DNA of 64,000 nucleotides from Escherichia virus TH38. The DNA lies in sequence record MT446410.1. One strand, 5' to 3'. The position numbers and the translations under genes were made by a program. Shown in pieces: positions 53,128-54,110 of the stretch (its first letter is position 1; every line of letters begins with the position of its first letter). The notes below the pieces were generated by a model. That model was given only the letters and a program-made list of their open reading frames with translations, did no database searches and was not told where the DNA came from.

Positions 53128-53412
53128 TCAACCTCTTGGGAATGGCATCAAAAATTCCACAGCAGATTTAATTTCATTATTGATTCTTGAATCACGATAA
53201 GAGATAAACTTACCTTTGCTATCACGTAACATCACATTAGTTCTGGCTGTTTTGTGAGGGAGTAATGTGACACTAGTTGGAATAGTATCAATCCCTACAG
53301 CGTATTTGTCAATAGTCTTACTTTCAGCCAACAGATAAGACCAAGTACGCGGTTTCTGCTCCGGGCGGTTAGGGTATGTGTCCCGAATTTGAACCATAGC
53401 TAACTTATTCAT
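53128..53412 (-). CDS. Small protein, tandem paralog 2 of 2 (TARTNV.LR...GKFISY...PFP.G family)
   Basis: Shared motifs with the 53414-53668 ORF. Confidence 0.5.
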   Translation of the reverse strand: MNKLAMVQIRDTYPNRPEQKPRTWSYLLAESKTIDKYAVGIDTIPTSVTLLPHKTARTNVMLRDSKGKFISYRDSRINNEIKSAVEFLMPFPRG

Positions 53413-53413
53413 A

Positions 53414-53668
53414 TTAAACTCCTTTAGGGAATGGGATGAGATTTTCTACTGCAACACGGAAAGATTTTTCTACGTTCTTATTCTTATAAGAGATAAATTT
53501 TCCATCAGCTCCGCGAAGGAGTACGTTAGTGCGAGCTGTATTTGGGTTTTGTTGAATCATAGAACGAATGATGTTCTCTGAACCTCTATGCTTATTGGTG
53601 AATTTCCAACTGATAGTTTTACCGGTACGAGTTACATCAATAATATTTACAATTTTTACAATAGACAT
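53414..53668 (-). CDS. Small protein, tandem paralog 1 of 2
   Basis: Shared motifs with the 53128-53412 ORF. Confidence 0.5.
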   Translation of the reverse strand: MSIVKIVNIIDVTRTGKTISWKFTNKHRGSENIIRSMIQQNPNTARTNVLLRGADGKFISYKNKNVEKSFRVAVENLIPFPKGV

Positions 53669-53701
53669 ATTTATTACCTAAGAAATTTAATTTGGTTTAT
53701 A

Positions 53702-53732
53702 TAAAAGAAAAGGCCACCCATTTGGGTAGCCT
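53702..53732 (-). terminator. Rho-independent terminator (minus strand)
   Basis: ggctacccaaatgggtggcc plus T-rich tail on the minus strand. Confidence 0.5.
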
Positions 53733-53736
53733 CATA

Positions 53737-54054
53737 TTACGATGAGCTTAAAGCTCCTTTGCGTGCTCCAGCTGCTTTTCCAGCTCGATCACCACTTTTG
53801 CCGCCGTTTGAACGGTTTGAGCTGACTGATTCAACACGTAAGTTGCTTGACGCATTAGAACCTCCAGACTTGACAGCTCGTTTGTGTCCAACGTCTTTAC
53901 CTCTGACAGCAGCTTTTCCATCGCGCTTTTCAACGATGCGACGTGCACGGTGGCGCTGAGCATCTCCGCTCTTGCTCCCAACGCCTGTCTCACCACGGGC
54001 AATTGCGGTACGTCTTTCTTGTGCATAATCTCTCTTTCCTACATGATCTGCCAT
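53737..54054 (-). CDS. Basic Gly/Lys/Arg-rich protein (KGG-repeat-like); an alternative frame, 53748-54026, is also open
   Basis: AAGGAG RBS 7 nt before the ATG at 54054. Confidence 0.4.
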   Translation of the reverse strand: MADHVGKRDYAQERRTAIARGETGVGSKSGDAQRHRARRIVEKRDGKAAVRGKDVGHKRAVKSGGSNASSNLRVESVSSNRSNGGKSGDRAGKAAGARKGALSSS

Positions 54055-54090
54055 TTAAAACTCCTTAATATATCAGTGTACACTAAGGAG

Positions 54091-54099
54091 TATACATTA
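54091..54099 (-). promoter_or_regulatory. TAATGTATA motif (minus strand) between PhoH stop and the next gene
   Basis: About 40 nt upstream of the 54054 start. Confidence 0.4.
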
Positions 54100-54110
54100 T
54101 AAGTTACTGT

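Follow-up and report, generated by a model that had tools for sequence, protein, structure and literature searches.

The DNA analyzed here, a stretch of 64,000 nt that we refer to as the window, comes from a phiEco32-like podophage (Kuravirus, Gordonclarkvirinae), and 99 Escherichia and Shigella phage records are 92-98% identical to it across 2 kb around the locus described in the following. The main gene of this locus is the orthologue of phiEco32 gp58 and SU10 gp56. It is encoded on the minus strand (53737..54054), and its product has 105 aa, a pI of 11.5, and no cysteines. A second open reading frame of 92 aa (pI 6.8), which is a candidate overprinted gene, is embedded in gp58 on the same strand (53748..54026). 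This ORF begins 28 nt inside gp58, which places it in the +1 frame, and its end is 11 nt ahead of the gp58 stop. An earlier note had described two overlapping open frames on the same strand and an AAGGAG ribosome-binding site in front of the basic one. Both frames are indeed present, and the Shine-Dalgarno sequence AAGGAG was found at 54066..54061 on the minus strand, 6 nt before the gp58 ATG. In the 12 annotated relatives' records that we examined, the 92-aa ORF is not annotated, and in a literature search we did not find the overlap at gp58 reported. In gp58 codons 28-60, which correspond to residues ~19-51 of the +1 product (53875..53973, minus strand), comparison with relatives revealed suppressed synonymous change. 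The gp58 gene (53737-54054) has 51% G+C in a window of 42% G+C, and G-ending codons are rare in it (G3 0.09 versus 0.19 +/- 0.03, with 1% of gene windows reaching 0.09).

Ahead of gp58, we found TAATGTATA, the motif of gp36-dependent middle/late promoters (54091..54099, minus strand). This motif marks promoters that are recognized by gp36, the phage sigma factor (PMC4281155), with AATGTA centred at -11.5 (PMC12276001). The window contains five exact copies of TAATGTATA (20150, 37694, 47591 on the minus strand, 47663, and 54091 on the minus strand), whereas 0.65 are expected, and we presume that this phage uses these copies as its gp36-dependent middle and late promoters. In SU10, one of three middle promoters lies between CDS 56 and 57 (PMC4281155), which is the same position as that of TAATGTATA ahead of gp58. 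Based on the published motif spacing, transcription from the gp58 promoter would start at ~54084. RNA folding indicated a 13-bp hairpin (54060..54091, minus strand), in which ACUCCUU... is paired with the Shine-Dalgarno sequence AAGGAG. As the anti-SD arm is located upstream of the predicted transcription start, this hairpin would be formed only in read-through RNA, and the gp58 ribosome-binding site would thus be masked solely in RNA that reads through from PhoH. The 40-nt cassette with the promoter motif followed by the anti-SD (54060-54099) shows hardly any variation in 12 of 14 relatives, also when the upstream gene is a different one. Directly after both stop codons, a terminator scan detected an intrinsic terminator with a 10-bp GC-rich stem and a subsequent T-run (53700..53733, minus strand), and the same element is annotated as a terminator in phage SU7. 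With a gp36-type promoter upstream and a terminator after the stops, gp58 is therefore a near-monocistronic middle unit.

The flanks of gp58 (~54055-54110 and ~53669-53736 of the window) are insertion hot spots in relatives (L022:1784-2278, L023:1790-2284, L031:3341-3748, L032:3330-3821, and L001:2614-2946). Relatives have HNH_3 or Endonuclease VII homing-endonuclease genes directly downstream of gp58 and extra small genes, e.g., phi32_59, between PhoH and gp58, and neither type of insertion is present in the window. Directly downstream of the terminator, the window has two adjacent paralogous genes on the minus strand (53414-53668 and 53128-53412) that encode proteins of 84 and 94 aa. Both belong to phrog_6814, and this pair is fast-evolving and varies in copy number among relatives.

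The 105-aa frame is certainly a genuine gene of a conserved family. Its product matches phrog_4590 with E=7.7e-41 (residues 4-101 aligned to positions 2-99 of the 100-position profile) and is 100% identical to phi32_58 of phiEco32, which is annotated as a 'hypothetical protein'. Relatives were found in 246 phage records (Escherichia, Pseudomonas, Aeromonas, Proteus, Salmonella, and Cronobacter), the family comprises more than 200 protein clusters, and the homologues are always located within the replication/nucleotide-metabolism module, with the DNA polymerase gene following 0.5-2 kb downstream. The GC content by codon position is 0.62/0.59/0.32, with a GC3 of 0.32 that resembles other genes of the window, and the variable columns in 14 relatives are distributed 26/13/54 over the gp58 codon positions. 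SU10 gp56 (10.83 kDa) is identical to the window gp58 over all 104 SU10 gp56 residues, and SU10 CDS 56 was detected by mass spectrometry as a 10.8 kDa protein with 18.3% coverage and 2 peptides, in a search that was limited to predicted CDSs (PMC4281155). The earlier note had considered that one of the two frames could be spurious, and for the basic frame this is excluded by the conserved family and the mass spectrometric detection in SU10.

The gp58 homologue of Proteus phage Privateer (L027:3971-3997; also L052 and L053) contains an in-frame TAG after MPSSPGYV, and the conserved sequence resumes in the same frame past this TAG (VRNYQQERL...). The Privateer stop could reflect read-through, suppression, or a disrupted gene, and only a truncated CDS from a later Met is annotated in GenBank. 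A similar in-frame stop occurs in Aeromonas LAh_9 (L024).

The basic protein had also been described as KGG-repeat-like in the earlier note. Like the KGG-repeat stress proteins (PF10685; YciG/GsiB type), gp58 is small, basic, and rich in Gly and Lys, but it has no repeats and its conserved motifs are of the HNH type. As there was no Pfam KGG match even at E<=1, we rejected this assignment. In an alignment of 35 diverse members of the gp58 family, H35, H57, N71, and N80 are invariant, and the AF2 model of gp58 (pLDDT 68) places H57, N71, and N80 on the elements E53-57, E72-76, and H77-83, which form a predicted beta-beta-alpha unit. According to this model, gp58 would have the catalytic His at the end of strand 1, the structural Asn, and the metal-binding Asn on the helix by which HNH proteins are recognized. 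PF01844 was weakly matched (E<=1) by 26 of the 35 relatives, with a best value of 5e-4, and the best match to HNH_3 had 7.5e-5. The window gp58 itself had no Pfam match and was below every threshold, and a PDB sequence search with it returned nothing. When the gp58 model was compared with the PDB by Foldseek, only matches with E>3 were obtained, the top ones being HNH nucleases, and the comparison with BFVD returned small phage HNHc proteins (E=2.6e-4 to 5e-3). The invariant His and Asn residues, the beta-beta-alpha model, the weak Pfam HNH matches, and the Foldseek results together point to gp58 being a very basic, cysteine-free mini HNH-fold (beta-beta-alpha-metal) protein.

In comparison to the HNH endonucleases (PF01844), gp58 shares His57, Asn71, and Asn80 on the predicted beta-beta-alpha unit. 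Many HNH endonucleases have a Cys/His zinc finger, whereas gp58 has no cysteines and therefore no such zinc finger, and the strongly conserved N-terminal half of gp58 (RGETG...S.D..RHRARR) has no counterpart in known HNH proteins. The residue directly before the HNH catalytic His is acidic or His and serves as a metal ligand (Cas9 D839/H840, T4 endonuclease VII D40/H41). HNH endonucleases have an Asp at this position, and D-H is also found in most members of the gp58 family, whereas the window gp58 has G56-H57. As this Asp is a Gly in the window's clade, nuclease activity of the window-type gp58 appears doubtful. Codon 56 (53887-53889) encodes Gly in the Kuravirus-type proteins and the Asp of the HNH 'DH' dyad in nearly all others, and the base changes at this codon also turn a Thr into an Asp in the +1 product (KTLTT to KTLDT).

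Taken alone, the open +1 frame of the window gp58 is no more than chance would produce and looks like a by-product of the main gene. Stops in the +1 frame are possible only at codons with T in the second position (Val/Ile/Leu), and gp58 is poor in these residues. The stop-free run in the +1 frame of gp58 has 96 codons. Runs of at least 96 codons arose in the +1 frame in 7% of synonymous gp58 recodings that followed the phage's own codon usage, and 17% of the recodings reached 96 open codons in any of the five alternative frames. Among the 105-codon windows taken from the real genes of the window, 0.47% reached 96 open codons, which corresponds to ~0.7 expected cases per 64 kb. The +1 ORF has a GC3 of 0.65 versus 0.36 +/- 0.05, and its codon score is below that of all 556 real-gene windows. 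Such atypical codon usage is expected of overprinted genes and is equally typical of a non-gene. We set these single-sequence statistics (recoding, gene windows, and codon score) aside, as they cannot decide whether the +1 ORF is a gene.

The 92-aa +1 product had no family match in Pfam and PHROGs profile searches, it was called as a protein in only 2 near-identical clusters among 5.8 billion, and no stand-alone homologues were found outside the gp58 locus. The AF2 model, which was based on a shallow alignment (pLDDT 71.7), predicts two long helices comprising residues 9-44 and 50-91. The product is hydrophilic, with a maximum 19-residue hydropathy of 0.80, and its predicted tryptic peptides include AEMLSATVHVASLK, TLDTNELSSLEVLMR, and QATYVLNQSAQTVQTAAK.

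We then compared the frame across the family, using 157 gp58 loci that represented 122 unique genes. Stop-free +1 frames were present in 28 genes of the window's clade, in 23 genes with a transmembrane-type +1 product, and in 3 of ~71 others, and they fall in two monophyletic groups plus these 3 others. The 3 open frames among ~71 elsewhere in the family compare with about 5-7% expected from codon usage, and this agreement outside the two groups indicates proper calibration of the null model. An NJ tree of the main protein, with sequences clustered at 90% identity as tips, recovers the window's clade as monophyletic, made up of the Kuravirus group together with L030, L031, L033, L034, L082, L083, and L086; L152, L154, L155, and L157 were added afterwards, placed by similarity. 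All members assigned to this clade have an open +1 frame. The frame is closed in L032, which is the sister of the window's clade, and in L153, L035, and L088, and as it is broken in these close relatives, it is dispensable for some phages.

Within the window's clade, 16 of 18 tips have no stop in the +1 frame. In 1500 neutral tree simulations, 2.3-3.1 tips stayed open on average, and the maximum was 10. These home-made neutral models started from a stop-free root, had branch lengths chosen to fit the synonymous turnover of gp58 itself, and used the window's codon usage for all tips as well as the NJ tree. In 14 open lineages, 0 stops were found in the +1 frame, whereas 30.8 were expected, and among the alternative frames, +1 alone is stop-free. 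In the four closed relatives, the stop numbers in each of the five alternative frames were as expected under the null. When a Val, Ile, or Leu codon was followed by a purine, it ended with A or G in 0 of 111 cases, and when it was followed by a pyrimidine, so that A and G are harmless, such endings occurred in 13 of 31 cases (both counts ignore phylogeny). A family-wide Poisson-binomial test of the open +1 frames gave P=1e-6. We had also carried out a parsimony count on the at-risk sites common to all lineages, which left 3 sites with P=0.01-0.05 and was replaced by the full simulation. As judged by these sequence comparisons, the +1 frame is open in the window's clade far beyond chance.

The rate of synonymous change was analyzed along the gene. 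Among the open lineages, pS in gp58 codons 28-60 was 0.40-0.64, in contrast to the saturated values of 0.8-1.0 in codons 8-27, with a similar pN, and pS in codons 28-60 was 0.82-0.90 against closed relatives of equal protein distance. The reduced synonymous rate thus concerned codons 28-60 and partly 61-95 and only the open lineages, and it was absent in codons 10-27. In 14 Gordonclarkvirinae, codons 28-60 are almost invariant at the nucleotide level. In this block, the +1-frame identity among the open lineages was 0.45-0.58 versus 0.29-0.34 in the null, and it was at the null level against closed relatives. The first ~18 residues of the +1 product showed no conservation, and the excess conservation fades at the deepest comparison (window versus L034 group). 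Overall, the amino acid sequence of the +1 product is only moderately conserved. There was no conserved RNA structure in the coding region (alifold z -0.6 to +1.4), and no phage tRNAs that could cause the odd codon use were found in the window.

Codon-position conservation in relatives had been proposed by the earlier note as a way to decide about the overlap. This was the right check, and the comparative data favour the overlap, but its simple version is misleading here. The +1-frame pN/pS is 1.0-2.4, and as the 'synonymous' sites of the +1 frame are gp58 first positions, this ratio is mechanically pushed above 1. We therefore rejected the codon-position pattern of 26/13/54 and the +1 pN/pS as proof of a spurious +1 ORF, both being uninformative. 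T3 depletion was likewise given less weight as support for a +1 protein, since a T3 of ~0.3 is frequent among the window's small middle genes, although the G3 of 0.09 is still an outlier.

An ATG-initiated +1 ORF of 92-105 aa exists in 15 of 15 aligned lineages, with the ATG at one of three nearby positions. The usual +1 ATG is formed by the Tyr10 codon TAT and the next G; L157 and L086 do not have it, and an upstream ATG is available in these. The internal AUG at 54026 is preceded by a weak, poorly spaced SD-like element (GAGAG / AGGA), which is lost in some Kuravirus relatives that read CGT GAT T ATG.

A translated overlapping gene would be expected to show both selection for an open frame and a synonymous constraint that is linked to this frame, and dual coding is therefore favoured. 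In our view, the gp58 locus is probably, though by no means certainly, genuinely dual coding, with the 92-aa +1 ORF as a second gene. Of the two possibilities raised in the earlier note, the genuine overlap is hence the better supported one, with 16 of 18 tips open instead of the 2-3 expected and with synonymous change suppressed only where the frame is open. The main competing explanation, which we consider possible but clearly less probable, holds that only gp58 is a gene, that the 92-aa ORF arises incidentally because its host protein contains few Val, Ile, and Leu residues, and that its persistence is due to shared ancestry and another constraint on synonymous sites, such as an accuracy-driven codon choice at the invariant Arg and His residues or a DNA/RNA site in codons 28-60. 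The ORF is indeed unsurprising in the window alone (P=0.07, with ~0.7 such runs expected per window), its codon usage and GC3 look non-coding, its product is without family or homologues and is seldom gene-called, and its SD is weak and not conserved. It also fits this explanation that the excess conservation is frame-agnostic, that the third-position composition is odd beyond the +1 frame (e.g., 113 stops in the +2 frame versus 174 expected), and that the invariant block consists mostly of CGT/CGC, CAC, ATC, GTT, and GAA codons, which we take to be the codons preferred in E. coli. However, a single gene leaves unexplained why stop-making third bases are avoided at every at-risk site, even in the N- and C-terminal regions with their saturated synonymous sites, while A and G endings are used freely where they are harmless. 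Neutral turnover would leave just 2-3 of the 18 tips open, the synonymous constraint vanishes exactly in the lineages with a broken +1 frame, and neither a conserved RNA structure nor a tRNA-driven codon bias was found.

Two further explanations are both very unlikely. The +1 frame could be read by a frameshift from the gp58 AUG, resulting in a gp58 N-terminus fused to a +1 C-terminus. This would make an internal ribosome-binding site unnecessary and would fit the unconserved first ~18 residues of the +1 product, but we saw no slippery site or stimulatory structure at the locus, and the 5' ATG of the +1 ORF is kept or replaced nearby in 15 of 15 aligned lineages, which argues for independent initiation. 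Alternatively, the low synonymous divergence of gp58 could result from recent recombination or homing-endonuclease-driven gene conversion rather than from selection, in agreement with the homing endonuclease genes directly downstream of gp58 in several relatives and the mosaic histories of neighbouring genes. Gene conversion would lower pN together with pS, yet pN shows no reduction in the low-pS block relative to the rest of the gene. Moreover, this block lies mid-gene, away from the insertion site, the endonuclease-carrying genomes share the same block sequence, and the stop avoidance would be left unexplained. We could not find any explanation other than dual coding that covers both the selection for an open frame and the frame-linked synonymous constraint. 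Against dual coding stands that initiation at the internal AUG would face competition from the strong gp58 start, where ribosomes load 28 nt further upstream. The weak, non-conserved SD-like element, the unconserved first ~18 residues of the +1 product, the fading of the signal at the deepest comparison, and the loss of the frame in close relatives also speak against it.

Transmembrane-type +1 products occur in LUZ24-like Pseudomonas phages and in L039. They have a 19-residue hydropathy of 2.65-3.18, compared with 0.9-1.2 +/- 0.45 in recodings (P<=0.0003), and in the hydrophobic segment 53-61% of the third codon positions are T, in contrast to 22-29% in the flanks. The LUZ24-like +1 products constitute phrog_11010 and are termed 'membrane protein' in some records, e.g., Ka1_36, which overlaps Ka1_35. 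UFV-P2 ORF33, which is also annotated as a 'membrane protein', is most likely another of these +1 products. The LUZ24-type loci (e.g., L028:4014-4283) include L007, L012, L013, L028, L048, L050, L039, and ~20 metagenomic loci. In L007, the +1 frame is the one that starts with an ATG behind a good GGAGGA site, whereas the HNH frame has a TTG as its start, located 14 nt further on. For one and the same DNA of LUZ24-like Pseudomonas phages, two protein families are thus listed in PHROGs and GenBank. The phrog_11010/phrog_4590 pair of Bruynoghevirus resembles the window locus in that a homologous gene is overlapped in the +1 frame, to a near-equal extent, by a frame that is open in many lineages. 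It differs in that phrog_11010 proteins have a transmembrane-type segment with T-enriched third positions, whereas the +1 product of the window is hydrophilic and the third positions are T-depleted. The window +1 product had no profile match to phrog_11010.

Embedded same-strand genes are known from phages. Two examples, each in the +1 frame, are Rz1 of lambda, which lies within Rz, and E of phiX174, which lies within D, and overprinting in viruses has reportedly been the subject of a published review. As in these cases, a short ORF lies wholly within a longer gene of the same strand in the +1 frame, its product is unrelated to the host protein and odd in composition, and its own start is weak. 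In contrast to Rz1 and E, which are membrane/lysis proteins of demonstrated function and translation, the putative window +1 product is predicted to be soluble and helical, and its host is an HNH-like gene of the replication module, unlike in Rz/Rz1 and D/E. The gp58 +1 ORF would add one more to the embedded genes already known in phages.

If dual coding applies, the gp58 locus would be a small self-contained middle-gene unit, with its gp36-type promoter, strong ribosome-binding site, and intrinsic terminator, that encodes two proteins from one strand, namely gp58 and the overprinted +1 product. The +1 ORF would be translated at a low level from the internal AUG at 54026, giving a two-helix soluble protein, and selection would hold the +1 frame stop-free and curb synonymous change in gp58 codons 28-60. 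The homologous gene of the LUZ24-like Pseudomonas phages would have had its +1 frame captured differently, resulting in the membrane-type protein phrog_11010. Our guess is that the +1 product is an accessory protein, the output of which is tied to that of gp58. More speculatively, and rather unlikely to hold in all its parts, the mini-HNH gene of these podophages may be an old dual-coding locus, in which the +1 frame was recruited for, or diverged into, at least two different proteins, a soluble two-helix protein in phiEco32-like phages and a membrane protein in LUZ24-like phages, the second products being functionally tied to the HNH-like protein, e.g., as a partner or inhibitor from the same transcript.

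If the +1 frame is translated, the phiEco32-like phages, which include therapy candidates and the model for transcription control by gp36 and gp79, carry an unannotated gene hidden in gp58. Annotation pipelines discard ORFs of this sort, and the overlap of the PHROGs families 4590 and 11010, which cover the same DNA, is unrecorded. 'Synonymous' recoding of gp58 would then not be silent. If the +1 frame is not translated, there is still a strong unexplained constraint on the synonymous sites of this gene. If dual coding holds true, the gp58 family would be a clear natural case of gene birth by overprinting, in which one frame of a small conserved gene gave rise to different products in different phage groups, with the lineages that lost the frame serving as internal controls.
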